The notes under the pieces were generated by a model. It did no database searches. It worked only from the letters and a program-made list of their open reading frames with translations, and was not told where the DNA came from. Below are positions 23,089 to 46,100 of a DNA stretch of 64,000 nucleotides, in pieces; position 1 is the first letter of the stretch, and each line of letters opens with the position of its first letter. The position numbers and the translations under genes are program-made. Source of the stretch: a virus (Duplodnaviria > Caudoviricetes); IMG/VR virus record IMGVR_UViG_3300042431_000676, positions 5,610 through 69,609 of that record. The stretch is one strand, 5' to 3'.

Positions 23089-23425
23089 TCAAATCATTGG
23101 TCAAATAGAGAAATCTATTGAAGAAATTGAACTATCTTTAAATGAAGAAGAATTTAAAGATTATTGTGATAATGCTTATACATTAATTTCATATTGGAAA
23201 CAACAAATTAAAATATTGTCAATAATGGCTAAATTAACACAAGAACAAAAAGAACATTATCTGAAAAATCCAGATGAATGTCCATATTGTTATTCAGGAG
23301 ATATTACAGCATACCATCCAGATTTTGATACAAATTCTTGTAGTAGAATTGTCAAATGTAATGAAGAGGATTGTGGTAAAAAATGGGTAGATGTTTATGA
23401 ACTTAAAGGTATTGAGGAATTATGA
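23069..23425 (+). CDS. Zinc-ribbon protein
   Basis: CPYC...CNEEDC. Confidence 0.6.
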   Translation: MEKQKINQIIGQIEKSIEEIELSLNEEEFKDYCDNAYTLISYWKQQIKILSIMAKLTQEQKEHYLKNPDECPYCYSGDITAYHPDFDTNSCSRIVKCNEEDCGKKWVDVYELKGIEEL

Positions 23426-23583
23426 TAGAAGTAATTAACAGATTAAAAGCTATGAAGCAATGGTCTGACAGAATAGGTTCTGATGAAATTGGTGAAATCA
23501 ATGAAATGATTGCTATACTTGAGAAAGAAGTAGCTCATAACAAGAAAACTGCAATGGAAATTTCTAAAATTTTGACTGAATGA
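23422..23583 (+). CDS. Small hypothetical protein (53 aa, not in ORF track)
   Basis: MIEVINRLKAMKQWSDRIG...; ATGA overlaps at both ends. Confidence 0.55.
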   Translation: MIEVINRLKAMKQWSDRIGSDEIGEINEMIAILEKEVAHNKKTAMEISKILTE

Positions 23584-25079
23584 CACCAAGTATAAAACAA
23601 CAAACTGTATATGATACTTGGACTACTACAGACTATAACTTACTTATTCAATCAGTAGCAGGAAGTGGTAAAACAACTACTTTGATGGGTATTTTAGAAA
23701 GATGTGAATATAGAACTTTATTTTTAGCTTTTAATAAATCAATTCAAGAAGAAATTCAAGGTAAAATTGAACAGAATGGATATGCACATGCTAAAGCTAT
23801 GACTATCCATTCTTTAGGTTTACTTTCAATTAGAAATCATTATGGTTCAGGAAATGTTATTATAAATAATAACAAATCTTGGCAACTTATGAAAGATTTA
23901 GAAAGGTTTAATAAAAGATTATTTGGTTCACTTATTTGGGAAGAAAGAGCTAAAATTAGTATGACTATTATGGAAATGAATGACTTGTCAAGAGTTTTTC
24001 TTACCAATGATATGAAAGAACTTTTTGGTTTTATGAAACAGATGGACAAATTTTATTTTGAACATCCAAATCTTGAACAATTATGGAATGAATTTATTAC
24101 TTTAAGAGAGCAAACTTATACTGGTAGTAAAATTGAAATTGATTTCAATGATATGATATATCTTGTTGTAAGAGAGAAGATTATGATAGCAGTTCAACCT
24201 TATTATTTAATGATTGATGAAGTTCAAGATTTAAGTTTTGCACAACATCAATTTATTCATTTGCTGGTAAATCAAGGTGATATAGAAAAATGGGTCAAAA
24301 TTGGAGATAGAAGACAATCAATTTATGGATTTTCAGGTGCTTATGGTAATTCTTTTGATTTAATCAAAGAAGAACCAAATGTAATTGAATTACCATTAGA
24401 TGTTTGTTATAGATGTCCTCAATTAGTTGTAGATGAAGCAAATAAAGTATATAATGTAATGGAAGGATTTAAGCAAGAACCAGGAATTGTTGATAACATT
24501 ACAGATGTTTCATTAATTCAAGAAGGTTCTATGGTTATTTGTAGAAACTCTACTCCTCTTATTGATTTATACTTTCAATTATTATCATTGAATAAAAAAG
24601 TATTTATTAAAGGTGATGATATTTTAGCTTCTATAACTAAATTCTTAAAACCATATTCTTATAAAACTGTTGATGAAACTAAAAGAAAAATAGCTTCTGA
24701 ATTAACAAGATTAGAAAGAATTGAAAATAAGAATGATGATGAAAGATTCAAACTTTATAGATTGAAACAAAATTATTCTAATTTTATTCTTTTAATAACT
24801 CATTTAGTTATTGGAGATAACAAAATAGAAGTTTTATTACAATCTTTAAAACAATTATTTGCTGAAACAGATGATGAATCAGTTATTACATTATGTACTA
24901 TTCATAAATCTAAAGGATTAGAAGCTGATGTAGTATATATTTTAAATGAATTTTTAATTCCATCTAAATTTGCTAAATCACCAATGCAATTAGAACAGGA
25001 ACAAAATTTAAAATATGTAGCAAGAACCAGAGCAAAAAAGGAACTTTATTATTTAATAATAAAATCAGAAGATGAGTAA
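23580..25079 (+). CDS. UvrD/Rep-like SF1 helicase
   Basis: VAGSGKTT, LAFNK, IDEVQD, GDRRQSIYGFSG, CYRCP, TIHKSKGLE, YVARTRA. Confidence 0.92.
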   Translation: MTPSIKQQTVYDTWTTTDYNLLIQSVAGSGKTTTLMGILERCEYRTLFLAFNKSIQEEIQGKIEQNGYAHAKAMTIHSLGLLSIRNHYGSGNVIINNNKSWQLMKDLERFNKRLFGSLIWEERAKISMTIMEMNDLSRVFLTNDMKELFGFMKQMDKFYFEHPNLEQLWNEFITLREQTYTGSKIEIDFNDMIYLVVREKIMIAVQPYYLMIDEVQDLSFAQHQFIHLLVNQGDIEKWVKIGDRRQSIYGFSGAYGNSFDLIKEEPNVIELPLDVCYRCPQLVVDEANKVYNVMEGFKQEPGIVDNITDVSLIQEGSMVICRNSTPLIDLYFQLLSLNKKVFIKGDDILASITKFLKPYSYKTVDETKRKIASELTRLERIENKNDDERFKLYRLKQNYSNFILLITHLVIGDNKIEVLLQSLKQLFAETDDESVITLCTIHKSKGLEADVVYILNEFLIPSKFAKSPMQLEQEQNLKYVARTRAKKELYYLIIKSEDE

Positions 25080-25194
25080 ACCAAAAGAATGTATAAATTC
25101 TAATTGTAATAAAATAATTTATGTAGAAGATTGTAATCTACATTTACCTTTACAATGTGAAGATTGTATCAATAAAAAACTTAAAGATGAGTGA
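25072..25194 (+). CDS. Tiny Cys-rich protein (40 aa, not in ORF track)
   Basis: MSKPKECINSNC...QCEDCINKKLKDE; overlaps both neighbours. Confidence 0.45.
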   Translation: MSKPKECINSNCNKIIYVEDCNLHLPLQCEDCINKKLKDE

Positions 25195-25384
25195 TATAAC
25201 AACTAAAGAAAAAGTGCAAGGTATAAAAATTATATTAGGTGCATTAGAAGAAGGTTTAAAAGAATTACATGCAGAAGGTGTTGTATGTAATTTTACAATA
25301 GCTACTGATAAAAAAACAGTATCTATAAGTTCTGAAAAAGAATTTAGTATAGAATTAAAAGCAACAATAAATCAAGAACTATGA
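25187..25384 (+). CDS. Hypothetical protein
   Basis: ATG at 25187; ATGA overlap with thyX. Confidence 0.55.
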   Translation: MSDITTKEKVQGIKIILGALEEGLKELHAEGVVCNFTIATDKKTVSISSEKEFSIELKATINQEL

Positions 25385-25869
25385 TTAGAGCAGAAATAGT
25401 TGGGCATTCAAAAAGTCCACAAGGAGATGAATTAATTACAGTATTGGCAACATTTCCAAGACATATTTTAGCAGAGGTCAATACTCACAGAATGTTGAGT
25501 AAAAATACCTCATCAAGTAGAGCAATTCCATTTGATAAACTGTTAGAAATGGTACAAGAAAATCCTTTTATTCCTATTGCTTGGCAAAAAGAACATAAAG
25601 GAATGCAAGGAACTGAATATTGGGAAGGAGAACATGAAATACTTGATTTAAGAGAAAGTTGGTTAATCTCAAGAGATAGAGCTATAGAAGGAGCAAAAGA
25701 TTTACATGCTAATAAAGTAACTAAACAACTTTGTAATAGATTAATAGAGCCATTTATGTGGACTACTATGTTAATTACTGGTAGTAGAGAAGGTTGGGAT
25801 AATTTCTTTAGATTAAGAAACCCAGTCTATGAGATTGATTTAGATAATCTTGAAAGTTTAAAAGATTAA
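25381..25869 (+). CDS. thyX: Flavin-dependent thymidylate synthase, N-terminal half
   Basis: FPRHILAEVNTHRMLSKNTSSSRAIP (THRx7S), KQLCNRLIEPF, WDNFFRLR. Confidence 0.85.
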   Translation: MIRAEIVGHSKSPQGDELITVLATFPRHILAEVNTHRMLSKNTSSSRAIPFDKLLEMVQENPFIPIAWQKEHKGMQGTEYWEGEHEILDLRESWLISRDRAIEGAKDLHANKVTKQLCNRLIEPFMWTTMLITGSREGWDNFFRLRNPVYEIDLDNLESLKD

Positions 25870-25897
25870 AATTTTGTACTTTGGGATAATTTCTTTA
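25794..25897 (+). repeat. 17-bp direct repeat ttgggataatttcttta
   Basis: Exact copies at 25794-25810 (inside thyX-N) and 25881-25897 (intergenic). Confidence 0.9.
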
Positions 25898-25903
25898 TCT
25901 TTG
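25873..25903 (+). promoter_or_regulatory. Bacteroidota sigma-A promoter for the endonuclease-tad1-thyX-C unit
   Basis: -33 TTTG (25873-25876), 19-nt spacer, -7 TATCTTTG (25896-25903). Confidence 0.75.
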
Positions 25904-25919
25904 TAAAAATTTATAAAAG

Positions 25920-26588
25920 ATGAAAAAATATTATGTTTATCAACATATAAGAGAAGATAAGAATGAGATATTTTATATAGGTATTGGTACAAAATCTAAA
26001 CAAGATTTAAAATGTAGTACTTATAGTAGAGCTTATTCTAAACACATAGATAATAATATTTGGCTTAAAATAATTGATAAAACTAATTGGAAATTTGAAA
26101 TACTTTTTGAAGCTGATGATAGAAAAGAAGTAGAACAGATGGAAATAGATTTAATTGCTAAATATGGTAGAAAATGTGATAAAACAGGTTGTTTAGCTAA
26201 CTTAACTTTAGGTGGAGAATCTAATTTAGGGTATAAACATACTCAAGAAGCTATACAAAAAATCTCTGAAAAAGCCAAAAGAAAAAGAGGTTATTCTAAT
26301 ATTAATTATACTCCTGAATTAAAACAAAAGTTATCTAATATTCAAAAAGAAATTGCTAACAAACCTGAAAAAATTGAATATAGAAGAAATCTTGCTAAAG
26401 ACAATTCATATAGGTCTATCTCAGCTTCTTTAGAAGATTTAGAAACAGGTAATATTTGGAGTGCAAAATCCATAAAAGAGTTATCTAAAATTTGTCCAAT
26501 AGCTTATCCAACTCTTATTAGAATGAAAAAACAAGACCCAAGATGTAAATTGTATAATAAATATAAATTAATAGTGTATGAAAAATAA
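25920..26588 (+). CDS. GIY-YIG homing endonuclease with NUMOD3-like motif
   Basis: YYVYQH...FYIGIG...RAY...E...LANLTLGGE; GYKHTQEAIQKISE. Confidence 0.85.
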   Translation: MKKYYVYQHIREDKNEIFYIGIGTKSKQDLKCSTYSRAYSKHIDNNIWLKIIDKTNWKFEILFEADDRKEVEQMEIDLIAKYGRKCDKTGCLANLTLGGESNLGYKHTQEAIQKISEKAKRKRGYSNINYTPELKQKLSNIQKEIANKPEKIEYRRNLAKDNSYRSISASLEDLETGNIWSAKSIKELSKICPIAYPTLIRMKKQDPRCKLYNKYKLIVYEK

Positions 26589-26892
26589 TGTTGTAGGACA
26601 CCAATATGAGTTGTCTAATTTTGAAAACAAAGACCAACAAGGTCAAATTTTACAATTTATTCACAAAGAACCAAAAGAAGAAGGTTCTACTGAATTAGTT
26701 ACTATTGCTGATGGTACTACAAATGAAGAAGTTTTAGAAGTATTGATTGACAGAATGAATTTCTTACAATCTAAATTTCCTTGTAGAGAAAATGCAATTG
26801 TAATCACAAAACTTGAAGAATCTTTAATGTGGCTTAATAAAAGAACACAAGATAGATTGAAAAGGAATGTAGAAGGAAAACAATTAAAGTAA
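26578..26892 (+). CDS. tad1: Tad1-like cyclic-nucleotide sponge (anti-Thoeris/anti-CBASS)
   Basis: GTTNEEVLEVLIDRMNFLQSKFPCRENAIVITKLEESLMWLNKRTQDRLKRNVEG matches the recalled Tad1 core (DRL..FQ..F..RENA.A.T..EEALMW...R..DR..RNV.G). Confidence 0.8.
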   Translation: MKNNVVGHQYELSNFENKDQQGQILQFIHKEPKEEGSTELVTIADGTTNEEVLEVLIDRMNFLQSKFPCRENAIVITKLEESLMWLNKRTQDRLKRNVEGKQLK

Positions 26893-27488
26893 TGGGTAAT
26901 ATAAAAAGATTTTCAAGTAGAAAAGAAGTTACTGAATTTCTTTCTACTAAAGGTATAGATACTTCAAATTGGTCAGAAGAAAAGTGGCTATCTCTAAATA
27001 AAGGTCAAGCTGAAATTCACATGATGGCACTTGCTGAATGTATTTATGATGCAGTAAATGAATCTACTCCAAGACAATTAAAAGCTGGTGAATGGCATGT
27101 TCCATTTGTAGATAGTTTTGAAAGTTATTCTAATGCAAATGCTGATGATATTGATAAATTAGTAAAAGATTTTCAATTGAATGATATTAAAATTTCAGTA
27201 GCTATGGCAGCAAGAACTTCTTATACAGTAGTAGGAGAAGAAAAAGAAATCAATTATGAAAACTTAATTGGTTTGCATGATAGATTATTAACTCAAGACC
27301 CACCTCATTCAAGTCCTTTTGAACATTGTGCAAGAGCTATGAGTGATGAAGAATACTTTACTGCTGTAAAGACTGTAAAAGGATTAAACAGAGAAAAAGC
27401 AATTGTACAAAAAGATTTGGGTTGGTGTAATAATCTAAAAGGATTTATAAATTATCGTTATTTTGTAGATAATAATATAAATTTGTAG
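26892..27488 (+). CDS. thyX: Flavin-dependent thymidylate synthase, C-terminal half
   Basis: QAEIHMMALA, EWHVPF, SVAMAARTSY, HSSPFEHCA, NLKGFINYR: C-terminal motifs of phage ThyX. Confidence 0.8.
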   Translation: MGNIKRFSSRKEVTEFLSTKGIDTSNWSEEKWLSLNKGQAEIHMMALAECIYDAVNESTPRQLKAGEWHVPFVDSFESYSNANADDIDKLVKDFQLNDIKISVAMAARTSYTVVGEEKEINYENLIGLHDRLLTQDPPHSSPFEHCARAMSDEEYFTAVKTVKGLNREKAIVQKDLGWCNNLKGFINYRYFVDNNINL

Positions 27489-27496
27489 TATATTTG
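27489..27496 (+). promoter_or_regulatory. -7 element upstream of the second endonuclease
   Basis: TATATTTG directly after the thyX-C stop, 20 nt before ATG. Confidence 0.5.
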
Positions 27497-27516
27497 TAAA
27501 AATTTTAAAGGTTTTT

Positions 27517-28191
27517 ATGAAAGTTATAGGTATTTATAAAATTACGAACTCTATAAATAATAAAATTTATATTGGCTCTTCTGTAGATATAAAAGCAAGA
27601 AAGTATTTACATCTTTCAATGTTGAAGAATAATAAACATCATTCCCCTATACTACAAAGAGTATATAATAAATATGGAAAAAATAGTTTAAAATTTGAAA
27701 TAATAGAATTATGTAAAGAAATAAATTTATTAGAAAGAGAACAATATTATATTGATACCTTAAAACCTGAATATAATTGTTGTCAAATAGCAGGAAGAAC
27801 AAATGGTTTGATAAGTAATAAAAGAAAACCTATTATTCAATATGATTTAGATGGTAATTTTATTCAGGTTTTTAATTGTTTACAAGATATTATGACTACA
27901 TTAAGTCTTACTAATAGCTCTAAAATTACTAAAGTATGCAGATTAGAAAGAAGAAAAGCATATAATTTTGTTTGGAGATATTTAGGAGATGATTTTATTC
28001 CATTTTCTTATAGAAAAAGAAAAGGTGTAAGTATTGCAGAAATAAATGATAGAGGAGAAATAATTAAACAATGGGAAACAATTAAAGAATGTGCTGAAGA
28101 GTTAAACACTACTTCTTCATTACTTTGTAATATATTATCTACTAAAACAAGAGCTAAAACATTTAAAGGTAAAATTTTTAAAAGAATATAA
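27517..28191 (+). CDS. Free-standing GIY-YIG homing endonuclease with NUMOD1-like repeats
   Basis: IGIYKITNSINNKIYIGSS...R...H...LEREQYYID...YN; QYDLDGNFI and KAYNFVWRY. Confidence 0.9.
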   Translation: MKVIGIYKITNSINNKIYIGSSVDIKARKYLHLSMLKNNKHHSPILQRVYNKYGKNSLKFEIIELCKEINLLEREQYYIDTLKPEYNCCQIAGRTNGLISNKRKPIIQYDLDGNFIQVFNCLQDIMTTLSLTNSSKITKVCRLERRKAYNFVWRYLGDDFIPFSYRKRKGVSIAEINDRGEIIKQWETIKECAEELNTTSSLLCNILSTKTRAKTFKGKIFKRI

Positions 28192-28220
28192 ACACTAAAC
28201 TTAATTTAAAAACAAAAATT

Positions 28221-28505
28221 ATGAAGGTAATTGGTAGAAGAGTTCTTGTAGAACAAACAATGACTAAAAAACAAACTAAAATTATATTAACTGGTAAATC
28301 TGCTCCAGAGGAAACATTTGATATAACTTTTAAAGTTTTACAGTTAGGAGAAGAATGTCCAGAAGGTGTTATAAATATAGGAGATGTACCTATTTTTACA
28401 AAACATGTGGATTTTCATGGAGCAAAAATTATAGAAGAAACAAAAGATGTGAAAACTGTTTTACATACTATTGTATTCTATGATGAAATTATTGGTGTAG
28501 AATAA
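28221..28505 (+). CDS. groES: GroES-like co-chaperonin
   Basis: VIGRRVLVE, IIL mobile loop, VLQLG, IGDV, EIIGV; 94 aa. Confidence 0.65.
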   Translation: MKVIGRRVLVEQTMTKKQTKIILTGKSAPEETFDITFKVLQLGEECPEGVINIGDVPIFTKHVDFHGAKIIEETKDVKTVLHTIVFYDEIIGVE

Positions 28506-28518
28506 CTAAAAATTCAAA

Positions 28519-29097
28519 ATGGAAAAAATTAAAACAATTGCTGATTATCAGCAATTAGCAAAAAGAACTTGTGTAGATTTAGAATCTTATGACAAGAATC
28601 AAAATCACATGTGGTTAGGAATTACTACAGAAGTTGGAGAAATACTTGATGTATGTAAAAAGAATTTAGCTTATTCAAAACTTGTTGATGTAGTTAATAT
28701 AGGAGAAGAAATTGCTGATAAAATGTGGTATATTGCTAATAAAGCTAATCTTGAAGGATTAATTTTATTAGATGATATTACAGAAGTTGATGAGACTTTA
28801 TGGTTGAATCTATGTAGTGTTTATGATGATTTTATTAAAATTCCTGAAAGAACTACTGATGTTAAAGTTAATTTTACTATTCAATTTTACAAAGATTTCT
28901 TTGGTAATCTTGATATGTTGAACACTTTTGATTTACTTACAGTAACTAAATTTCTTTCTGATTTTTGGCAATTTGATTTTTATCAATTACTTACAAATAA
29001 TATTAACAAATTACAAGTAAGGTACCCTGAAAAATTTACTAATGAAGCTGCTTTAAATAGAAATTTAGAAGCTGAAAGAGTGGAATTAGAAAAATAA
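28519..29097 (+). CDS. mazG: MazG-like nucleotide pyrophosphohydrolase
   Basis: YQQLAKRT, LGITTEVGEILDVCKK, EEIADKMWY, NINKLQVRYPEKF. Confidence 0.85.
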   Translation: MEKIKTIADYQQLAKRTCVDLESYDKNQNHMWLGITTEVGEILDVCKKNLAYSKLVDVVNIGEEIADKMWYIANKANLEGLILLDDITEVDETLWLNLCSVYDDFIKIPERTTDVKVNFTIQFYKDFFGNLDMLNTFDLLTVTKFLSDFWQFDFYQLLTNNINKLQVRYPEKFTNEAALNRNLEAERVELEK

Positions 29098-29103
29098 TCT
29101 TAT

Positions 29104-29127
29104 AGAGGAGTAGAAATACTCCTCTTT
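29104..29127 (+). terminator. Probable terminator hairpin
   Basis: agaggagta-gaaa-tactcctct with short T-run. Confidence 0.65.
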
Positions 29128-29141
29128 ATAAATATCATATT

Positions 29142-29459
29142 ATGCTAACAGAATTAAAAGAACAAGCTCAAGAATTATTAGATTTTGGAGATTCAAGAGA
29201 AAAAGCTAAAGGTTATGGTATGATGAAAGTCATAGAATTAGTTGAAAATGATTACTATCCAAAATCTCGAAGTATATCTTGGTCTGTAGAAGACCTTAAA
29301 CATCAAGCTGAAAATTTAAAAGGTTTTAGTCCTGATTTAGATTTTGATGAGACAAAATTTGAAGAAGTTTTAGAAATGATTATTCATAAACATGATGCCA
29401 ATATTGGTATTAATTGGGATGTCATTCAAATTTATTTAATGGAACATTGTAAAAAATAA
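29142..29459 (+). CDS. Hypothetical protein
   Basis: 105-aa ORF. Confidence 0.65.
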   Translation: MLTELKEQAQELLDFGDSREKAKGYGMMKVIELVENDYYPKSRSISWSVEDLKHQAENLKGFSPDLDFDETKFEEVLEMIIHKHDANIGINWDVIQIYLMEHCKK

Positions 29460-29463
29460 AAAT

Positions 29464-30225
29464 ATGACAACACTTGAACAAATAGAATTTGAAAAAGATT
29501 TAAAAATAATGAGAAAAGTTTACATTATCATATCTATTATAGTAATTGCTATATTATTATTTAGAGGATGTGAAATGGAAAGACAAGGTGGTATATCAGT
29601 AGCATTAAATCAGAGTTTGAAAGATAGTTTAAATACTTATAAAACAAAAGATGGTTTAAATGCTGCTAAAATATCAGTATTTGAAGCAGATAAGGAAAAA
29701 GATTTCATTAGTTTAGCTACAAAAGACACAACTATACAAAAATTACAGAAACTTGTAGAAAGTAATAAATCTAAAATACATAGACAAGGTAGCATATCAA
29801 TTATCAACACAGAAACAAATGTAGGTACTACAGTTGCAACAAAAGTAATAGATAGTATATTACCATCAGATTCTATAAAAAGTCCTGTATATGCTTCTAA
29901 TTTCAATTTAAAAGGTTGGATAAAAGGAAGCACAATTGCTACAAAAGATAGTACCTCAATAAAACTTACTTATAAAGAAGAGTTAAATCTGATTATAGGT
30001 AAAGAAAAAACAGGTTTTCTTGGGTTAGGTAAAGGTAAAACCTTTGCTGATGTAGTATTATTAAATCCTTATAGTGAAGTAAAGCAAATGAGAGTTTATA
30101 GTACAAAAGAACCAGCAGCTAAAAGAATAACAATTGGACCAGGTGTCTATTATGGAATTGGAAATAGCTTTCAACCACAAATATTTATTGGGATTGGTGT
30201 AACTTGGAAATTAATTGCTTTTTAA
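29464..30225 (+). CDS. Membrane-anchored protein, candidate spanin
   Basis: N-terminal hydrophobic helix ending LLFRGC, coiled segment, C-terminal amphipathic beta-hairpin ending WKLIAF. Confidence 0.5.
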   Translation: MTTLEQIEFEKDLKIMRKVYIIISIIVIAILLFRGCEMERQGGISVALNQSLKDSLNTYKTKDGLNAAKISVFEADKEKDFISLATKDTTIQKLQKLVESNKSKIHRQGSISIINTETNVGTTVATKVIDSILPSDSIKSPVYASNFNLKGWIKGSTIATKDSTSIKLTYKEELNLIIGKEKTGFLGLGKGKTFADVVLLNPYSEVKQMRVYSTKEPAAKRITIGPGVYYGIGNSFQPQIFIGIGVTWKLIAF

Positions 30226-30227
30226 TT

Positions 30228-30428
30228 ATGAGTTTACATGAAACAGTTTCTAATAAAGAAAGACCTTGTTATAAATGTATTGAATCAATTAATACTATGG
30301 TAGATTATTATGGTATGCAGCAATTAAGAGATAAGTTTAATATAGGTTGGGAATATTCTATTAGTTATGTAGAATCAAGAATTAGAAATCCAATTGAAAT
30401 TAAAAAACATTTTATAATTTTAGAATGA
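30228..30428 (+). CDS. Hypothetical protein
   Basis: Short ORF; ATG at 30228. Confidence 0.5.
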   Translation: MSLHETVSNKERPCYKCIESINTMVDYYGMQQLRDKFNIGWEYSISYVESRIRNPIEIKKHFIILE

Positions 30429-30745
30429 TGGAAGAAGTTATTTGGTGTTATTCTCTGAAAGACCATAATACAATCTTTATTTTTAGAAGTTTACCTCATA
30501 AAGAAATTGAAATAGATTTAAGAAATATCTTTAATTCTATAAATGAAAAAGGTATCAAATTAACTGTCAATGAAGATTTATTATTAAAATCTTTACTAAC
30601 AGATTATAGTCAAACTCATAGGTGTAAAACTTGTAAATATCTATTAAAAACTCAACCAAATAAAAGAATTATGCATAAATGTGCTGTAACTGGAAAAGAT
30701 GTTACTTTACAAATGAAAGCATGTAAAGAATTTAAAGAAAATTAA
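30425..30745 (+). CDS. Cys-rich hypothetical protein
   Basis: CKTC...KC...ACKEF. Confidence 0.6.
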   Translation: MMEEVIWCYSLKDHNTIFIFRSLPHKEIEIDLRNIFNSINEKGIKLTVNEDLLLKSLLTDYSQTHRCKTCKYLLKTQPNKRIMHKCAVTGKDVTLQMKACKEFKEN

Positions 30746-30747
30746 TT

Positions 30748-31332
30748 ATGGTAGATAATTTAAAATTAATATTACCTTTCTTAAAATTTGAATCAGCAGA
30801 TGATTTTTATTATCTTCAAGTTTTACAGAGAAAGAAAGAGAACCCTCAAATCGGTAGTAATAGTAGAGTAATTAAAAATTACTATATTAATTCAGAAGAA
30901 TATTTAATTAATCATTATGATGAAATTAAAAAACTATGTGAAGTTTTTAATGCAAGAGCTTCTATTAGATTAAATAAAAGGTCTTATGAAGAAGTAGGAT
31001 TTAAAACTATGGTAAATGTAGCTAATACAATGTCTAATAGAGAATATCAATTTCTTAAAGCATCTTATGATAGAGCTTGTGGTTTAGGTCATAATGATGA
31101 TGAAAAGAAATGGATTCTTGATATTGATGGAATAATGAACTATAATGAAATTTTTAGGATGGAGGAAATAATTGAAAAAGCAGAACCACCTCATAAAAAG
31201 ATTATTGTGTATATTCCTTCTAAATCAGGTTTACATCTTATAACTAAACCATTTGATTTAAGAGAATTTACTTCTCATTATCCAGAAATTGAAGTTCATA
31301 AAGATAATCCAACTAATTTATATATTCCTTAA
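30748..31332 (+). CDS. AEP (primase-polymerase) superfamily-like protein
   Basis: WILDID (hhhDhD) and PSKSGLHLI (sxxGxH) motifs. Confidence 0.5.
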   Translation: MVDNLKLILPFLKFESADDFYYLQVLQRKKENPQIGSNSRVIKNYYINSEEYLINHYDEIKKLCEVFNARASIRLNKRSYEEVGFKTMVNVANTMSNREYQFLKASYDRACGLGHNDDEKKWILDIDGIMNYNEIFRMEEIIEKAEPPHKKIIVYIPSKSGLHLITKPFDLREFTSHYPEIEVHKDNPTNLYIP

Positions 31333-37156: not shown

Positions 37157-40100
37157 TTATTTACAATTAAATGGGTCTTCTTTTTTATTTTGGTCAAAGA
37201 TAGGGAAATTATTTTCAATCATATCATTTTCAGCAAAACCATTATCTCCTATAGTAAACTGAACTTGATTTTTATCAGATAATGGAGCATACTGAATACT
37301 TTGTGCTTGAGTTTTTTCCATTTCCATAAATACATCATTAGGTATATTTTCTACACTTTCAATTTCTCTAAAATTATTTTCCATTCTAATAAATTGCATT
37401 GAAGCCATAATAGATTCTTTAGCTACACTATTATTAATCAATCCTGGATAAACACTATTTAATAAATTTAAAATAGCATCAGATAATTTTGCCCATAAAG
37501 ATTTATCAGTAGCTTTATATTGTATTTTATTCATCTCTTCTTGAAACATTGGAGATGTTAAAGCAACTGTAATAAATTCTTTAATGTTAGTACCAGCATA
37601 GATTAAACCTAATTCTCTTTCAGTATATTCAGTATTAGAAGGTAATGTTTGACCAGTTTTTTTAGCATTATCTATAAGAGCTTTTTTCTCTATTAATGCT
37701 GTTATTTCTGGTTGTAACAATTTTTTAAATTCATTAAATACTATTACAAGATTAGTAACATGTTTAGGAGCATCAGCTTTTACATTTCCTGCTTCATCAA
37801 AATAATTACTTAATTCTTTAACTGTAACAGTATGAATAACTTCATGTAATAAAGTCATAGCTGCTTTATCATCTGATACATTTAATGTATGAGTAGGATT
37901 TAAAGTAACATCTTTACTATTTTTTGTTGTTCTTCCTGCTGCATCTAAATTATAATCTAATACTAATTTATCATTTCCAATTATAGGTAATAACCATTTA
38001 GCAGCTTCTGTTATATGAGAATATTCTGCTGATAATTCAGTATTTGCCACCTGATTCAATAAATCTTTTACAGAAGTATTTTCATCAACTTTAAATGTTT
38101 TTTTGCTTACATTAGCTATATTATCATCTGTTGCAATATTAGGTGTTACATTTTTTTTCAAATTCTTGATAGAAGAAACATTATCATTACCAAATTCATA
38201 TTCACTAACTCCCATATTACCCAATGTATCAATTTTTTGATATAAACCATTACCTATATGTTCAAATAAAGAAACTGATACAGGCATATTTCTTTTATTA
38301 TCTTTTACAGATAATAAAGCTGGATATTTTTTATCTTCTACATTGTACTCAAAACTATTTTGTTTTTTATTTTTAACATTCTTGAAATTAGCTTTTGGAG
38401 CTTTACTTGGGTTATGTTGGAAATATTGTTTAGTAAATGTACTCATACTATCTTCTTTGATACCTAACACTTTACCAAATAGATTAATAGAACTGTTATG
38501 TTTAGTATTAAACATTTGCAATTTTTGATTTGCTGCCATAAACACATCTCCTTGATATTGACCCATACTTTCAAGCATTTCAATAGGAACAAATTTTGCA
38601 AATTCAGTTGCTTTTTGAATACCTCCTTGTAAGAAAGAATAAGCTACTAAATCTTCTGCCAAATCTGCTGTAGAATAAGGTTGTCCATTTCTGAAAGGTA
38701 ATTGTTTATTAGCCATAACCAATTCAGGAATAGCATTATACAAATTCTCTTCATCTAAATTATCAGTAGCTGTATTATTATATTTGATTAATGATAATTC
38801 ATCTTCTCCTAATCCTGTTTCATATTGAAAACTTTTTAATAAAGCATTTTGAGACATTTCTTTTATTCCTTTCTTAAATTGTTTATCATCATTTTTAGAT
38901 AAATCTTTTAAGTAAGTAGATAAAGAAGTATTATTTTCATCATCAATAAACAATTCATATCTTTTAGCTTTTGGGTCAATGTTAAATACATTATTTCCTT
39001 TTCTTGAATAAATTAATTTCTTAATGTTTTCAACAATTTCTTCAAAATTTTCAATTATAGCATTATCAGAAATATTTTCTTCTTTACCTTGAATTTTCAA
39101 TATCTCTTTCACAACATCATTTATTGACTTATCTTGATATGGAAAGAAATCTCTATATAAAGTATTACCTAAATGTAAACCATTGATTACAATTTGTCCT
39201 TGTGGTGTTCTTGGTGTAACATAATAGTTTCCAATCATATAACCACCACTTTGATTTTCAGATGTATCAGAATAATCTCCAATTAATAAATGAGCATTTG
39301 TAATAACTCCATTATCAGGAAGTTTTTTCAAACCTTCATATTTTAATTGTGATTCAATCATAGATTTACCAAGAGTATTAGTATTAATAACTTTTTGAAC
39401 TTTAGCAACTTTTTTAGCTTCTTCTTCTAATGTTAAATATACATCTAAAGCAAGTAATTGCATTGCTCTATCTTTACCATTGTTTTCTATTCCTTCTAAC
39501 ATTTTTGTACCTGTTAAAGCACTTGTATCAGAAGTTTTCCCTAATGCTCCTTGATTTTTATCTGTTCCTTCACTAACCATTCCAGTACCTAATTCAAAAA
39601 CAAATTCTGAATTTGCACCATAAGATTCAATTAAATCATTGATTAATTTTTTATCATTTATAAATTCTCCTAATACTCCTTTACTTTCTTTTCTTCTTTG
39701 ATTTAATTCTTTAATAATTGGTTGAGATAATAATAAATAAGAAATAGAATTACCATTTTCATCTTTACCAAATCCTCTCAATGCTGTATTAGCATCTACA
39801 TTGATAGTAAATTCATCTACACCAACTCTACCAAGAACTTGCTCTTTTTCATTATCAGTACCAGTATTAATTTTTTCATCAAATGCTTCTGAAATATTTC
39901 TTTGGTGTTTTTCTCTCCATTCTTTTAATTTAGATTCAGACAAACCTGTTGGTTCTATATGTTGTATAGCACCAAGTTTCCCATCACTAATAAAATGACC
40001 AATTTGAATAGTTTTTGGATTACCTAAATCATCTTGAATATAAATATCTTCTCCTTGATGTTGTTGAAGTAAAGCATTAAATGTACTATAATTAGCATAT

Positions 40101-43100
40101 ACTCCAATAGCAACTTTACCAATAGCTCCTAAATTCATTTTACTTTTTTGGTAAGAATTTGTAAGCATTGTAAAATTCAATTGGTCAGCTTCATACATCT
40201 CATTAGCTTTTAAATCAGATAATGTAGCATCTTTAGCCATATATTCAGCAATCATCTTGTTTCTGTAACCAGCTTCATTTAATTTTTCTAACTGTTCAGC
40301 TTGACTTTTTGCAAAATCAATAGATAAAACACTATTGATTTTGTTTTGAATATCTAAATTAGGATTATTGAATATAGCCAAATGAGATTTAATAAATTCA
40401 TTTTCAGCTAATTTTCTTTTTAATTGTAATTCTAATCTATTTATTTTTTCAACAATATCAACTTGAGGTAATAATAAAGTTTCTAAAGATTCTTCATCTA
40501 ATAAACTTCCTTTACCTGCTATGAAACTTCTAAATAATTCATTAGCAAAATTACTTTTTGCAGAAGCACTTGTATTTTCAAGATTAAATTCTTCTATTTT
40601 ATTAGTTAAACTTCTTGTAATATCTTCTATATCAGAGTTTTCTAATACTTTAATTTTACCATCATTAGTCATAATATGATTTAATTGATAAGCAGATTCT
40701 TTATCAATATCATAATCAAGACCTTTTTGTTTAGTAAAGTTTTTAGGTACTATCATTAAATCCCCTACTTCTGGAGGTAATATACCAGCAATTTCAATAG
40801 ATGAACCTGATTTATGAGATGAAGTAGGAGTTCTAAAACTGAAGTTATTGAATAAAGCAGGGTCTATCATACCTTCTTTCAAAGTTAATGTACCATTTTC
40901 TCTTCTTGTTAAATACTTTCCTTCTTTACCATTAAATCCTTCAAATAAATCAATAAGTTCTTTTTTATCATTTTTAAATTTAGAAGGAATAAATACTTGA
41001 GCTTTATGAAATACTATTCCATTTTCATCTGTTGAAGTATGAGTTCCTTGTAATTCTTTACCATTATATGAATCTAAATAAATTATTCTTGATTTATCTA
41101 CACCTTCAAGATTTTCTTTCATTCTAAAACCACTTTCAGAACCAGCAACAAAACCATTACCAGGCATTTTATGCTTCATAATTTTGTTAGTGATAATTGA
41201 ATTTAATAGTGATTCATATCTATTACTATCAGAAGATAACCATAAAGGAGTTTTAAATTCATAATAGAATCCAGCAGCAGCAGCTAATTTTTCAATCTTT
41301 AATCCTGCTAATGATTTTACACTATAACCTCTTGAAGTAGCTTCTTTTATTAATAAATCTTGTAAGTTTTTTACAAAGTTTTGTTCATTTTTAATTTGAC
41401 CATTTGTATCTAAACCTAAATCTAAAAATAATTCTTGTTTTTTACTATCTACAATATCACTAAATGCTTTATTAAAATGTTGATATAATTCTTTACCAGT
41501 AAGTTCTTTACCATCAATAGTAAATCCTTCTTTATCAATTACACCATCACCAAATAATAATTTAAAAAACTGTGTACCCATAGAAACTTTATCATCTTGA
41601 TGTTTATCAGATTTAAAAGGTACATCTTGTTGTATTCTAAAATTATCTCTGTTCAATACTAACATATTAGTATTTATATCATCAGCATTATAATTTTTTA
41701 TAGTTGATAATGAATTTGTATCAAATGGCTTTACTGTTTTTATTGTAGCACCTACTTTGTTAGCTGTTTGAAAAGAAGCTCTTGTGAATCTACCTGTATT
41801 AGTTTCCAACTCTTCCATTTTTAATCTTAAAGCATCTAATTTTGTACCAGCAGTTAATTGTGGTATCAAAGGAAATGCAGAAGATTTAATATAAACTACT
41901 CTATTAACATCTTGATTTATATTAGTATATGTTCCTGTGTGAACAGGTTTAATTGGTTGAAATACTAATTTTAATTCTTCTTTAGTTAAATAACCTTTTT
42001 CTCCTTCTGTTAATAATTTATTAGTTATTACTTTAAATTCTTCATCAGAAATTCTACCTATTCTATGTAAAATAGATATATGCTCTGTTGCTGTTGAATA
42101 CTCTTGAGCATCAGTAGATTCAATATCAAAGTAAGCATCTATAGCTGGAAATTTATTAGCTAAAGATTTTCTAATATCAGATAATGTTTTATTGATAGCA
42201 TTATATCTAACAGAATTTAAACTTAAAATACCTTGTTCATGTTTATTTAATATTTCAGCAGCTTTTTTATATTTATCTAATAAAGGTTGAGCTTCATCTA
42301 ATCCTTTTTTACCATAGTAATTTTTAATTAAGTATTCTGAATTTTCACTAATATCTATAGAATCTTCAAGAAATATTTGATTATATTTTTCTCCATAAGA
42401 ATTAGCAATTTTACTACCAGGAGCAATAAGTAGTGCTAACCTTTTACCAAGATTTACACCAATTTCTTTATTAATAGAAACATAAGTTTTATCATCTTTT
42501 ATATCAAAAGGATTAACTGATTTACCTTCTTCTTTGTATAATTTATCTTTACTATAATTAGCAATATCTCCAGCAAATACTTTGAATACTTCTGAATTAG
42601 TAATCATATTATTTAATACAAAATCATAAACAGCTAAATCATAATCAGTTGAAGGATTTTTACCTTCTTCTTTAAAATAATTATTATCAAACATTTTAGA
42701 GTATGAATTTCCTTCTTTATTTACTTCTAAATAATTACTCCACATACCTTTTTTATGTTCTACTTCTTTTTTTATTACACCTTCAATAGCATCTTCAAAA
42801 GTAGATTGATATTTTTCAATAGCTTCATCTATTGTAATACCTGTTAATGCTAACTTATTTACAATATTTAAACCATCTTCATCTTTTAAAGTATTCATTA
42901 TAGGTAAGAAATGAAAAAGAGTTGCTCCTTTATCATAATCTTTAATATTTGTTGCTTTAACTTCTGTATGAAATTTAATTATTCTTTTTAGTTCTGGTAA
43001 CACCAATTGATTAAACAATAGAGTTTTAACAGTTGGTCCAATACCTTGTACTACACCTTCTTCTGTCAAATTAAACATACCATCTATTTTACCATCTTTT

Positions 43101-46100
43101 AAGAAATCAAAAATAGCAGTTGTCATATACATACCAGTAGTTTTATCTGACATAGTAGGAAATAACATATTAGCCATTCTCATTGATATACCTTCAAATT
43201 TAGTTCCTTTTGGTAATTTATCAATCTTTCTATCTTGAAAACCAGTAATACCAGCCATATCATAATCAATATCACTTAAATCAGTAATACTTGCTCTGTA
43301 TGGTTGTTCTCCTTTTTCTTTAAATGCTGTAATAGAAGTATGTGAAATTTCAAACATACTTTTAAAAGTAGGTTCATTTTTCAACATATCTAAAATTATA
43401 GAATTTTCAGATAGTGATAATGATAGTAAATCATCAACTAAATTGTTTCCATCTTCTGATATACTTCTTTTAAGATTCTGAACCATATCAGTTACATATT
43501 TAGTAGGAACTAAAGTGGATATGTTTTTACCAGAATCTCTAAAAGAAAGAGTTATTAGAGTTGGGTTATATTTTGCTTCTATTAAACTTAATGCTTTTGT
43601 AACACCAGCTAAATCATTAAATACACTTTCTTTACTATCAAAACTAAAATCAGCAGGATTAACTATTGCTTTTTCTAACCAATTTTTTAATGGAATAAAT
43701 AAACCACCAGCATTTTGACTATATAATACATTGAAAGAATTTTGTTTTCCAGCATTAAAAATACCTTCATTATAAATTTGATTCCAAGAGGTATCTTCAA
43801 AAGTATAACCTATTTTAGATAACCATTTCCTCAAATCATTTTCAGGAACTTTTCTATAATCTTGTCTATCCCATTTATTAAATTCATCTAATAATGATTG
43901 AGCATATTGTACATTTAAAGATTGGTTTTTGTTATATAAACCTGATGATTTATTTTCATTCTTCCAATTTTTAGCTATAATTCTTGTAGCTTCATTTGCA
44001 TTAGTATTATAGATTTTTAATGATACACCATTGTTTTTAGTGTTTTCATACATGGCAAATTTAGAAGACAAAGTATGTCTGACAAAATTATAAACTAATT
44101 CGTTTTTAATTTGTTGGTCAGCATTTTCTAATTTAGCTAAAACACTTTTTACAAAAGCATTATTACTTTGTTTCATTTTAGCTATGATAGTATTGTAATC
44201 AGATTTAACTTCTGAACCAAGAGCTAAAACTTTACTTAATTCATTATATACATCATTAAATGACATATATAAAGGAATACCTAAATAACCTTTTTGTGCT
44301 ACACCTTTGCTATCAAATACAGGAATTTCAGATAAAAATCTTCTTAATCTATAAGATGCTTTAGCTTTACCTGATTCTTCAATAGAATCTTTACTATAAT
44401 CTTTAACACTTAATTCTACATCATCTTGTTCAATATCACTTTCTTCTTTTTCATTTAAAGTAAGTTGAGTTTGTTTTTGAATATCAGCAAATGCTTTGTT
44501 ATATATTGTTTCATAATTATTTTTAATATCTTTAATATTTTTTAAAGTTTGATTATATGCTTCAATATAATGATTTAAAGCACCATTAGTGTTATCTTGA
44601 TTTTTAATTTCAGATAACATTGATAATACTTGTTTTTCTATCTTATTAAGATGTAAATTCAATTCTGATTTAATATCATTTTGAATAGCTTCTTTTGATA
44701 TTTTATTTTTATAACCAAAACTTACTTTATTACCAATTTTATGATATATAAACTGTCTTACATTTTTTTCTTGAGTTATAGATAAATCTCCACTAACATT
44801 GAAAATGTTAGCTAACTTATCTGTATTAGCAATCATATCATTACTTTCATCAAAATCATTAGGGTCAATACCCAAATCATTTAAAAATTCAGTATGTTTT
44901 TCTAAATTGAATGGTACAGATGTTTTAAGTTGCTCTACTACAGTAGCAGCAGCTTCTTGTCTTGCTTCAATATTTTTAGTTGCTGGTTTCTCCACTTCCT
45001 TGTAATCTACTGTGATAATTGGTTGTATCATAGTAACATAAGTAGGATTTTTTCCAGTATCATCAATATTAAAAGATTTGATATTAGTAAGTAAATTATT
45101 TTTTAAATAATTGTCATAAGTTTGATTTAAAGGAGTAACTCCTTCTCTTGTAATATGAACTATACTTTTTACATTTCTGTTATTCAAAAGTTTGTTATTT
45201 GTATGCTGTGAAACATTATTCATAACATTTTCATCAAACAAACCTTTTTTGTATTGACCTAAATTATCTCCAGCAATATTGTCTTGAAAATAAGTTTTTA
45301 TAAATTGAACTATTTCATTTCCATTTTCAATATCAAGACCCATTTGAGTATGCACATCTTTTTGAATAGATTTAGCTTTCTCATAAGTCATTTCATATAT
45401 AGTACCTTTCAAGTGTCTTGTCCAACTTGCATCTTTTTTAAGAGCTAAATGAGCAGCCATAGCAAATCTTGCTGTTTCTATTTGTTCATTAGAAACAACT
45501 CTTCCTACAGGATAAGCTCTATATGTTGGTACTATTTCTCCTTTATCATTTAATGTTGTACCTATTCTTCTTACTTCCCAAGTATGACCTACACTATTAA
45601 AATCAAATTTTCCTTCATTACCAGATTTATCTTTATTTAAGAGTTTTCCAGCATTAAAAATTTGATTACCCATATATAAGTCCTCTCCAATTTGTACTGT
45701 TACAATTGTTTGAGGATTAGCTTCATTTAGTGTAATTTTTGGTTCTGTCATAGGTATTTCATAAAATATACCATCAGAAGGTTTATTTATTGTAACTTCT
45801 GTTAAACCATTAGCTATACTATTTCTTAAATTTTGAGCATTTAATTTACCTTCATTAATATGATTTATCCATTCTTGAGTAGGTAAGTTAGGATTACTTG
45901 AATCTCCAAAAGGATTACCTATATTGAATGTATTATACCAATCAGTATCTTGAACATAAGCTAATTCTTTACCTGCACTATTAGTATAGAACACAGGAAC
46001 TTTATTCATAAATTCTTGTGTGTTTCTGAAATTAGGATTTTGTTTTTCTTTTTCAGATAACCATTTATCAAAAGTAGTTGTTTGAGCTGCTCCTTGTGCA

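Follow-up and report, generated by a model that had tools for sequence, protein, structure and literature searches.

A GIY-YIG endonuclease cassette with a Tad1-type cargo gene between the two halves of a ThyX-like gene in a virus genome

The split thyX locus and its relatives

We analysed a stretch of 64,000 nucleotides (nt) of virus DNA (hereafter, the window), which is part of the 69.6-kilobase (kb) linear virus record IMGVR_UViG_3300042431_000676 (estimated completeness, 77%) and has a G+C content of 27.2%, with respect to a locus at which a ThyX-like gene (thyX) is split in two by a GIY-YIG homing endonuclease gene and a homolog of the immune-evasion gene tad1. Four tightly packed open reading frames (ORFs), which are on the plus strand as are all features of the locus described below, fill positions 25381-27488. 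The first ORF is the ThyX-like N-terminal half (N-half; 25381-25869, 162 amino acids), which matches columns 425-554 of the PHROG profile phrog_85, annotated as thymidylate synthase, with an E-value of 1.1e-27, and the last one is the ThyX-like C-terminal half (C-half; 26892-27488, 198 amino acids), which matches columns 556-703 with an E-value of 1.7e-32, that is, the consecutive stretch of the same profile. Between them lie a free-standing GIY-YIG endonuclease gene (GIY1; 25920-26588, 222 amino acids), which matches phrog_314, annotated as homing endonuclease, with an E-value of 4.2e-15, and the tad1 homolog (26578-26892, 104 amino acids), the product of which scores 30.4 bits against PF24729, the Acb2/Tad1 hairpin family with a cut-off of 27 bits. 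An earlier reading of this DNA from its letters (hereafter, the original prediction) had placed the N-half stop at 25869, the C-half ATG at 26892 and the two genes between them, and the ORF positions agree with that placement. The probability of stop-free runs of the lengths of the two halves, as calculated from base composition, is 7.5e-7 for 162 codons and 3.3e-8 for 198 codons, and the split thyX with an endonuclease gene and tad1 between its halves was confirmed to be genuine, beyond chance.

The insert between the two halves (25870-26891) is 1022 nt long and has only 50 nt outside its two ORFs, being almost fully coding as had been claimed. The 5' end of tad1 overlaps the end of GIY1 by 11 nt, and its stop codon shares TAATG at 26890-26894 with the start codon of the C-half, the A being common to both, so that the coupling noted in the original prediction is indeed present. 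When intact alleles are compared, the insertion is seen to extend from about 25834 to about 26909. It provides the N-half with a C-terminal tail of about 11 codons (approximately IDLDNLESLKD) and the stop codon at 25834-25869, a boundary that is approximate and a tail that has no counterpart in intact alleles, and provides the C-half with its ATG and about five further codons, making a head of about six codons (MGNIKR) at 26892-26909. It also brings GIY1 with its 50-nt leader, which is the spacer at 25870-25919. Because the cassette supplies the upstream tail and stop and the downstream start and head codons, thyX would be expressed as two polypeptides.

The nearest cultured relatives were found by blastn to be Flavobacterium psychrophilum phages of the genus Fipvunavirus (34 matching records). 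Flavobacterium phage FpV4 has a single thymidylate synthase coding sequence (CDS) of 361 amino acids, on which the window halves align end to end with 75% and 77% identity. Furthermore, all 24 thyX ORFs that were read out, which were from 22 viral-contig loci, FpV4 and the locus L035, are single ORFs of 320-466 amino acids between stops. After the conserved FFxLRxPxY, these proteins have an insertion of very variable length with a (F/Y)KS(K/R)KD motif, the insertion being absent in L035.

The backbone that flanks the locus is 93.5% (23316-25384) and 97.1% (28202-30750) identical to that of FpV4, whereas the identity in thyX is only 80-84%. Because its identity to FpV4 is far below that of the flanks, the region that begins at the thyX start and ends with a second free-standing GIY-YIG gene (GIY2; 27517-28191, 224 amino acids; Pfam GIY-YIG at 41.7 bits plus NUMOD1) constitutes a diverged island in a conserved backbone. 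GIY2, which is without a counterpart in FpV4 and in phage FPSV-S29, closes this island and brackets it together with GIY1, and its homologs are found at the same place after thyX in L086 (74% identity) and L098 (34%). The contrast between the backbone and thyX fits an import of the thyX allele together with the endonuclease genes.

Among 54 viral-contig thyX loci, none was split at the site of the window, two (L091 and L102) were split at the site found in FPSV-S29 and two (L086 and L098) had a GIY-YIG gene directly after thyX. In the FPSV-S29 type, which accounts for 12 listed records of cultured phages, thyX is split independently at a second site, after residue 240, by another GIY-YIG gene (L002:3001-4934 in S29), and the second-site splits in L091 and L102 are also by other GIY-YIG genes. 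The neighborhood of thyX holds further endonuclease genes and remnants. In FpV4, an HNH endonuclease gene abuts the thyX start. In L105 (2597-3045), upstream of an intact thyX, a 70-amino-acid fragment of a thyX N terminus is followed by a GIY-YIG fragment; the former is 71% identical to the window, whereas the resident thyX of L105 is only 50% identical, and this pair of fragments resembles debris left by a previous homing event.

A search based on the endonuclease showed that three sister loci have this gene at the same position in thyX, namely L003 (a 110-kb viral contig, L141 being the same contig), L139 (a 6.5-kb metagenome contig) and L140 (the match of which runs off the contig end). 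Compared with the window, the thyX proteins of these sisters are 54-66% identical in the N-halves and 44-54% in the C-halves. Despite such diverged cores, the N-half tails are near-identical, being EIDLDNLDSLKD or EIDLDTLDSLKD in the sisters versus EIDLDNLESLKD in the window, and the C-halves of the sisters open with a very similar head, which is near-identical in L139.

Conservation and predicted assembly of the two halves

The two halves retained all of the residues that are invariant in the family, which were evaluated as alignment columns invariant in the 24 relatives: 35 of 35 in the N-half and 21 of 21 in the C-half, resulting in 56 of 56 in total. In the N-half, the region of the ThyX-type motif is THRMLSKNTSSSR at residues 35-47. 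With the ThyX motif, which we take to be RHRxxSxxxxSxR, the window fits except for Thr in place of the first Arg, and T35, H36, R37, S40, S45 and R47 are each invariant in the 24 relatives. The C-half has the family-invariant motifs ARTSYT and HSSPFEH. Since each half carries family-invariant motifs, neither would be expected to act alone. The ratio of nonsynonymous to synonymous substitution rates (dN/dS) of the thyX cores against FpV4 was 0.26 for the N-half and 0.24 for the C-half, values that span the whole divergence from FpV4 and thus reach beyond the time since the split.

The fold was examined on an intact relative (L085:3496-4545), for which the AlphaFold2 model had a mean predicted local distance difference test score (pLDDT) of 87.9 and a predicted template modelling score (pTM) of 0.87. 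This model matched ThyX structures with a Foldseek probability of 1.00 and an E-value of 3e-5. By VIA-align, the best match was 4p5a_A, the UMP/dUMP methylase PolB (Z 11.7; root-mean-square deviation, 3.2; 172 residues aligned), and 2af6_G, ThyX of Mycobacterium tuberculosis, was matched with a Z of 11.0 (root-mean-square deviation, 2.4; 148 residues aligned). A total of 47 ThyX-family entries were at Z 8.5-11.7, and the next entry was at 4.9. The intact relative therefore has the ThyX fold, the matches covering model residues 1-207 of about 350, and, with a UMP/dUMP methylase as its closest structural counterpart, its substrate may be dUMP or UMP. In the Pfam Thy1 profile (PF02511), which is matched by the intact relative L035 with an E-value of 2.4e-12, the order of the halves is permuted, with the N-half at profile positions 59-166 and the C-half at 11-58. 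This clade is apparently a divergent, circularly permuted relative of ThyX with an extra C-terminal region. In the L085 model, the insertion of variable length is composed of a hairpin (strands 150-152 and 155-157) and three short helices, and the break introduced by the cassette falls at the hairpin turn.

Co-folding of the window halves, each with its own 24-row alignment, resulted in an interaction prediction score from aligned errors (ipSAE) of 0.88 (0.88-0.89 in three runs) against 0.00 for the best control, with about 260 contacts, a contact agreement between runs of at least 96% and a partner pLDDT of at least 82. For calibration, 58 of 80 solved complexes attained the same mark, compared with 2 of 110 mismatched pairs; these counts hold only roughly here because own alignments were used, and two pieces of one fold can pass such a test through their likeness to the intact fold. 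In the predicted assembly, Y150 of the N-half tail pairs with C-half residues 6-7, so that the tail brought by the cassette is in contact with the head that it also brings.

From the invariant residues, the dN/dS values, the co-fold and the break at a hairpin turn, we infer that the halves form a working two-chain enzyme. The original prediction of a two-chain ThyX is thus in line with conservation and co-folding, and enzymatic activity of the pair would be predicted. It may alternatively be supposed that the insertion inactivated thyX and left a pseudogene, with the ORFs as decaying remnants and the phage relying on thymidylate synthesis by the host. Such loss would be tolerable if thyX is dispensable, and many phages are without it. 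However, it is difficult to reconcile with decay that both frames are open against the small chances given above, that no family-invariant column has been lost, that the thyX cores have low dN/dS, that the halves are still predicted to co-fold, that the same split with open halves is found in L139 and L003 even though those halves are only 44-66% identical to the window ones, and that the 12 listed isolates of the FPSV-S29 type have a split at another site. The pseudogene is, therefore, unlikely.

Mosaic identity, the cargo slot and the Tad1 homolog

The DNA identity between the window and its sisters was found to be mosaic. In bins of 60 nt, the identity to L139 was 0.85-0.93 over 25741-26588 and 0.92 and 0.83 over 26892-27011, whereas it was 0.35-0.72 in the thyX cores, except for one bin of 0.95. 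The identity to L003 and L140 was 0.80-0.97 over 25801-26400. Across the sister comparisons, the cassette DNA was 80-97% identical, compared with 35-77% in most of the surrounding thyX bins, and the four 5' junctions of the cassette correspond at nearly every base from about 25798 on. The tract over which identity to the sisters is much greater than in the rest of thyX is 25741-27026 and would represent the mobile unit, that is, the cassette with short co-converted ends of the exons. This mosaic is the signature expected of homing with short co-conversion tracts. A homing endonuclease is recognized by the presence and absence of its gene at one site together with co-conversion of the flanks, and both of them were found at this thyX site.

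GIY1 itself appears to be maintained. Its dN/dS was 0.10 against L139 and also against L003, which points to purifying selection. The motif positions YVY, YIG, R37, E75 and N94, for which we take the catalytic roles to be those of I-TevI, are invariant between the window and L003. The L139 copy is 91% identical at the protein level with the same C terminus. The L003 copy is close over residues 1-164 and differs in the C-terminal part, having a different DNA-binding part and one extra NUMOD3-like repeat. Cutting by the endonuclease and mobility of the cassette at the present time are predictions of the homing interpretation.

Three states were found for the slot that separates the endonuclease gene from the 3' half of thyX, namely with tad1, with another gene, or empty. 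It contains tad1 in the window and, among contigs of public runs compared at an 85% likeness threshold, in one pair from wastewater (X19). The 7.4-kb X19 contig matches 26383-27026, i.e., the end of the endonuclease gene, the whole of tad1 and the C-half head, at 96% with 25 differences, the 26-kb X19 contig matches 25734-26322 at 89%, and beyond both outer ends these contigs continue as thyX-like sequence unlike that of the window. By this comparison, the X19 pair represents a cassette with tad1 in a thyX background other than that of the window. In L139, tad1 is replaced by an unrelated ORF of 100 amino acids, which is overlapped at both ends as tad1 is. In L003, there are only 23 nt and no gene from the endonuclease stop to the C-half ATG, and the slot of L140 is likewise empty. 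In addition, one contig of another run (X21) joins 26573 to 26891 with three letters between them, so that tad1 is exactly absent, and the string at this junction is the same as that at the left of the L139 cargo. The junctions of the slot are, thus, precise at the ORF ends. Several other X21 contigs join 25737-25833 to 26995-27000 and are read as cassette-free alleles, although the intervening sequence is uncertain. Diverged variants of the cassette were also seen in wastewater runs, including one X21 contig in which 25870-26523 is replaced by 11 letters and the endonuclease gene is accordingly mostly deleted. The whole 1.4-kb stretch of 25700-27100 is held by 18 DNA runs from freshwater and lakes (2016-2024), which are not independent support because all of them are possible sources of the record.

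The second cargo (L139:2926-3228) encodes an acidic protein of 100 amino acids, which belongs to a conserved unnamed family of 82 clusters of 92-138 amino acids, most of them of 93-110, and its model is confident (pLDDT 91.5). This protein had no significant match in Pfam or PHROG, no sequence match among solved structures, Atlas scores of at most 0.84 and no match in the phage collection or the record of the window; its fold had a best Foldseek E-value of 1.0 and a best VIA-align Z of 2.5 over 48,161 chains. By its position, it is a candidate for a new counter-defence protein. A tentative and, at present, rather doubtful extension is that the cassette is a modular gene-drive shuttle with an exchangeable slot for counter-defence genes, in which the L139 protein would be a new anti-defence protein. 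If this were true, small immune-evasion genes could spread in a super-Mendelian manner at the cost of splitting a gene for host-independent nucleotide synthesis, and similar slots may be hidden in other endonuclease cassettes.

The tad1 product is homologous to six distinct Tad1 sequences among solved structures (E-values from 2.6e-12 to 7.4e-12, over residues 17-102), and no Acb2 chain is among the structures listed. On the basis of these homologs and of a hairpin domain score that exceeds the cut-off, it can be assigned to the Tad1 family; its N terminus is shorter than that of the solved proteins by about 20-30 residues. The available part of the report on CmTad1 (PMC10680739) gives, as residues for cyclic-trinucleotide binding and hexamer formation, C87, R88, A91, M92, T95, K96, Q98, E99, M102, W103 and K106. 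The window equivalents are C69, R70, A73, I74, T77, K78, E80, E81, M84, W85 and K88, of which 9 of 11 are identical and R70 and T77 keep both phosphate ligands, on a mapping for which the numbering of the deposited chain is taken to be offset by 10 residues, an offset that was deduced here. A function as a sponge for signalling nucleotides is, hence, suggested by sequence.

The dN/dS of tad1 against its counterpart in L005 was 0.17. In L005, the 3' end CAATTAAAGTAATG is identical and tad1 is joined through the same TAATG to a GroES-like gene, and in L035, tad1 lies 160 nt after an intact thyX with a 58-amino-acid ORF filling most of the gap. Because of these two arrangements, the cargo probably came from the neighborhood as a bare ORF. 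The tad1 clade is mainly of Bacteroidota (14 of 17 genome loci, by taxa as named in records). In the family of one genome with a tad1 homolog, that of Tenacibaculum litopenaei, SMODS and ThsB_TIR were above cut-offs in 19 and 15 of 151 genomes, respectively, and signalling defences of the kind blocked by Tad1 thus occur in such hosts. Among neighbors of tad1, none of the 70 upstream ORFs and none of the 72 downstream ORFs matched Pfam GIY-YIG at an E-value of 0.001 or less, a threshold that GIY1 itself would fail, and a tblastn search with both GIY proteins found none in L005-L084. As for other neighbors, the upstream ORF is a 5'-3' exonuclease in 13 of 70 loci, one downstream ORF has a Tad2-like domain (E-value of 3.7e-27), and upstream in L005, an ORF resembling spore photoproduct lyase has a weak match to intein splicing, with a long ORF on the opposite strand.

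It could be argued that tad1 is an ordinary accessory gene that came to lie beside a dead endonuclease through unrelated recombination, involving neither present mobility nor spread by homing. The cargo is indeed rare, as GIY1-type endonucleases were alongside tad1 in none of 80 viral-contig tad1 loci, and tad1 near thyX without an endonuclease, as in L035 and L005, would allow neighborhood alone to explain the arrangement. Against that, the endonuclease is under purifying selection in both comparisons, the identity of the cassette greatly exceeds that of the flanks in three backgrounds, the X19 contigs unite the endonuclease gene, tad1 and the C-half head within diverged thyX flanks, and a second cargo makes use of the same slot junctions, which are exact. 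The unrelated recombination is, for these reasons, quite improbable, and the proposal of a homing element that carries tad1, as made in the original prediction, is favored by the recurrence of the endonuclease at the same site, the cassette identity and the X19 contigs.

A perfect 17-nt direct repeat (repeat family D5) links the thyX exon (25794-25810, coding for WDNFF) with the endonuclease leader (25881-25897). All four cassettes retain the leader copy, and the high identity to the sister cassettes starts at the exon copy, which is probably part of the target region of the endonuclease. The repeat could be a scar of the original insertion or, alternatively, a target-like operator for autoregulation. 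I-TevI represses its own expression through a target-like operator.

The promoter that the original prediction had assigned to the insert is plausible only. The pattern TTTG-N18-20-TAnnTTTG was found 5 times versus 3.34 expected, with 26 of 100 shuffles reaching 5, promoters of the sigma-70 type were found 24 times versus 22.6 expected, and there were no intrinsic terminators. The spacer contains TATCTTTGTAAAAAT at 25896-25910, which is a possible -7 box of the Bacteroidota type, and the TA of this -7-like box is missing in L003 and L140. The related motif TTTGTAAAAA is enriched (10 versus 2.46 expected, none of 100 shuffles reaching 10), and 4 of its 10 copies are 11-15 nt ahead of long ORFs, including both GIY-YIG genes. 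Elsewhere in the window, an ORF of about 4300 codons (37157-50062, minus strand) has TATATTTGTAAAAA, the same motif as before the GIY-YIG genes, 12 nt upstream, and the ORF at 52293-54095 has a similar upstream motif. This motif is possibly a promoter element shared within the phage.

Interpretation and comparison with known systems

Taken together, we consider it probable, at roughly 0.75, that an intron-less GIY-YIG homing cassette with tad1 as cargo splits the ThyX-like gene into two polypeptides that reassemble. In this scheme, the cassette is located, in a phage with a backbone resembling that of FpV4, at the beta-hairpin turn of the insertion of variable length, and the two polypeptides, each with its family-invariant residues, would most likely reassemble into one ThyX-like fold. 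The endonuclease would cut the intact thyX of a co-infecting phage, and the break would be repaired from the allele with the cassette. Because the slot lies between the homology arms, which are the thyX halves, any homing event would copy the cargo with the endonuclease gene. The cargo in the window would be a Tad1-type sponge for the glycocyclic ADP-ribose (gcADPR) of Thoeris and the cyclic oligonucleotides of the cyclic oligonucleotide-based antiphage signalling system (CBASS). The variable cargo slot, the diverged island of thyX and endonuclease genes and the permuted, divergent nature of the ThyX relative go beyond the original prediction.

Several points weigh against this interpretation, in addition to the long span of the thyX dN/dS values and the absence of GIY1-type endonucleases from the other tad1 loci mentioned above. 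The match of GIY1 to Pfam GIY-YIG is 14.7 bits (16.3 bits in the scan of its own genome), which is under the curated cut-off of 22.6, and NUMOD3 is also weak, below its cut-off. The matches to Pfam Thy1 are 16.3 bits for the N-half and 14.1 bits for the C-half, both under the cut-off of 24.8, and the half sequences and their 24-row profiles match no solved structure, so the name ThyX rests on the PHROG match, the fold of the relative and the partial motif. ThyA (PF00303) was not found in the 69.6-kb record, and a second thymidylate synthase may lie elsewhere in the phage, as the record is only 77% complete by estimate. The second tad1-bearing background is represented by two X19 contigs from one run at 85% likeness, from a library that is labelled RNA-Seq and was judged to be probably DNA. 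With regard to splicing, phage introns interrupted by long ORFs can escape the Rfam group I model, and the metatranscriptome contigs X23 and X24, in which an intact allele of the FpV4 kind and one unspliced junction of exon and cassette were seen, cover only 6 of 30 bins each and are uninformative.

GIY-YIG endonucleases in thymidylate synthase genes are classically borne by introns, as in the case of I-TevI in the td gene of T4. A group I intron with the endonuclease gene and tad1 in its loops, from which splicing would restore one thyX mRNA, therefore has to be considered, and excision of about 25837-26900 would in fact give a protein colinear with the intact alleles. No Intron_gpI match was, however, found by Rfam in 25300-27600 at E-values up to 10, the only matches there being a CRISPR repeat model (7.5) and a microRNA model (5.7), and no group I intron was found in L139 or L003 at E-values up to 1. 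Compared with intact alleles, the sequence outside the endonuclease and cargo ORFs amounts to only about 86 nt at the 5' junction and about 17 nt at the 3' junction, and the 5' stretch folds no better than shuffled sequences (z -1.41). Furthermore, the site for the 3' half of an intron core coincides exactly with the variable slot, which holds nothing in L003 beyond the 23 nt after the endonuclease stop and about 300 nt of unrelated sequence at other loci, and the window, L139 and L003 all retain the in-frame stop and the ATG downstream of it. The group I intron was consequently rejected as very improbable, even allowing for the ability of ORF-interrupted phage introns to escape Rfam, and the claim of no sign of an intron stands. 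A split intein that joins the halves after translation was also rejected as hardly conceivable, since the fractured genes described in the available text of Dassa et al (2009; PMC2677866) do have a free-standing endonuclease gene between their halves but no Hint or intein domain was found by Pfam in either half at E-values up to 0.1, and the extra residues, about 11 in the tail and 6 in the head, are too few for intein halves of the sizes we take to be usual.

Homing endonucleases are usually regarded as purely selfish, and anti-defence genes as accessory genes that are spread by selection alone. With the homing cassette as the more probable interpretation, tad1 would reach more than a fair share of the progeny in co-infection because it is inside the unit that the homing element copies. 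If confirmed, this would provide a concrete mechanism for rapid horizontal spread of counter-defence genes among phages and a positional rule for finding such genes, with the family of the 100-amino-acid protein of L139 as the first to consider. It would also provide a second natural case, after NrdA of Aeh1, of an enzyme that survives being split by means of junction sequences brought by the invader. Searches of full-text literature, limited to papers outside subscription journals and to text other than supplements, found no description of an anti-defence gene within an endonuclease cassette that splits a gene and has an exchangeable slot, and none of the split thyX of these phages other than the GenBank annotation.

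The T4 td gene resembles the present locus in being a thymidylate synthase gene invaded by a GIY-YIG endonuclease, flanking exon sequence being co-converted in the process. The present locus differs in that no intron core was found, two polypeptides would take the place of a spliced mRNA, there is a cargo gene, and the target is of the flavin-dependent ThyX type, which is unrelated to ThyA. Within the same gene family, FPSV-S29 (MK764449) has two CDSs annotated as putative thymidylate synthase with a GIY-YIG gene between them; in addition to the different site, its endonuclease is 24% identical to GIY2 without a match to GIY1, and there is no cargo.

Homing endonuclease genes also bound exchanged segments in the so-called HEG-islands, in which, according to the available text, the cargo moved by homing is essential core genes that provide homology (Barth, Dunham & Seed, 2023; PMC10448857). 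The present thyX with its two GIY-YIG genes is similarly a diverged island in a conserved backbone, but its cargo, as far as that text allows comparison, is a small accessory counter-defence gene that is nested in the insertion and provides no homology. Another association between a GIY-YIG homing endonuclease and phage immune evasion is found in T6, where SegB is described, in the available text, to drive tandem amplification of tRNA or anti-defence loci under selection (Chihara et al, 2026; PMC13096335). In comparison with what is described there, the anti-defence gene at the present locus is physically nested in the putative homing cassette.

The closest counterpart is the nrdA gene with mobE in Aeromonas phage Aeh1, an arrangement known as genes-in-pieces and reportedly described by Friedrich and colleagues in 2007. 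The features of that arrangement, namely an endonuclease gene between separately translated halves and tails made by the insertion, are both present here, and the precedent invoked in the original prediction is, hence, appropriate in anatomy down to the junction tails. In Aeh1, according to the available text, mobE splits nrdA and the tails made by the insertion on both polypeptides are essential for assembly (Crona et al, 2011; PMC3045599). The two systems are alike in having a free-standing endonuclease gene in a gene of nucleotide metabolism, two ORFs and neither intron nor intein, and also in their junction tails, which are predicted here to be in contact as tail and head. They differ in the endonuclease, which is HNH in Aeh1 and GIY-YIG here, and in the target, which is nrdA there and a ThyX-like gene here, the split enzyme of which is predicted to be active. 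The present locus has, in addition, a slot that holds an immune-evasion gene, another gene or nothing.

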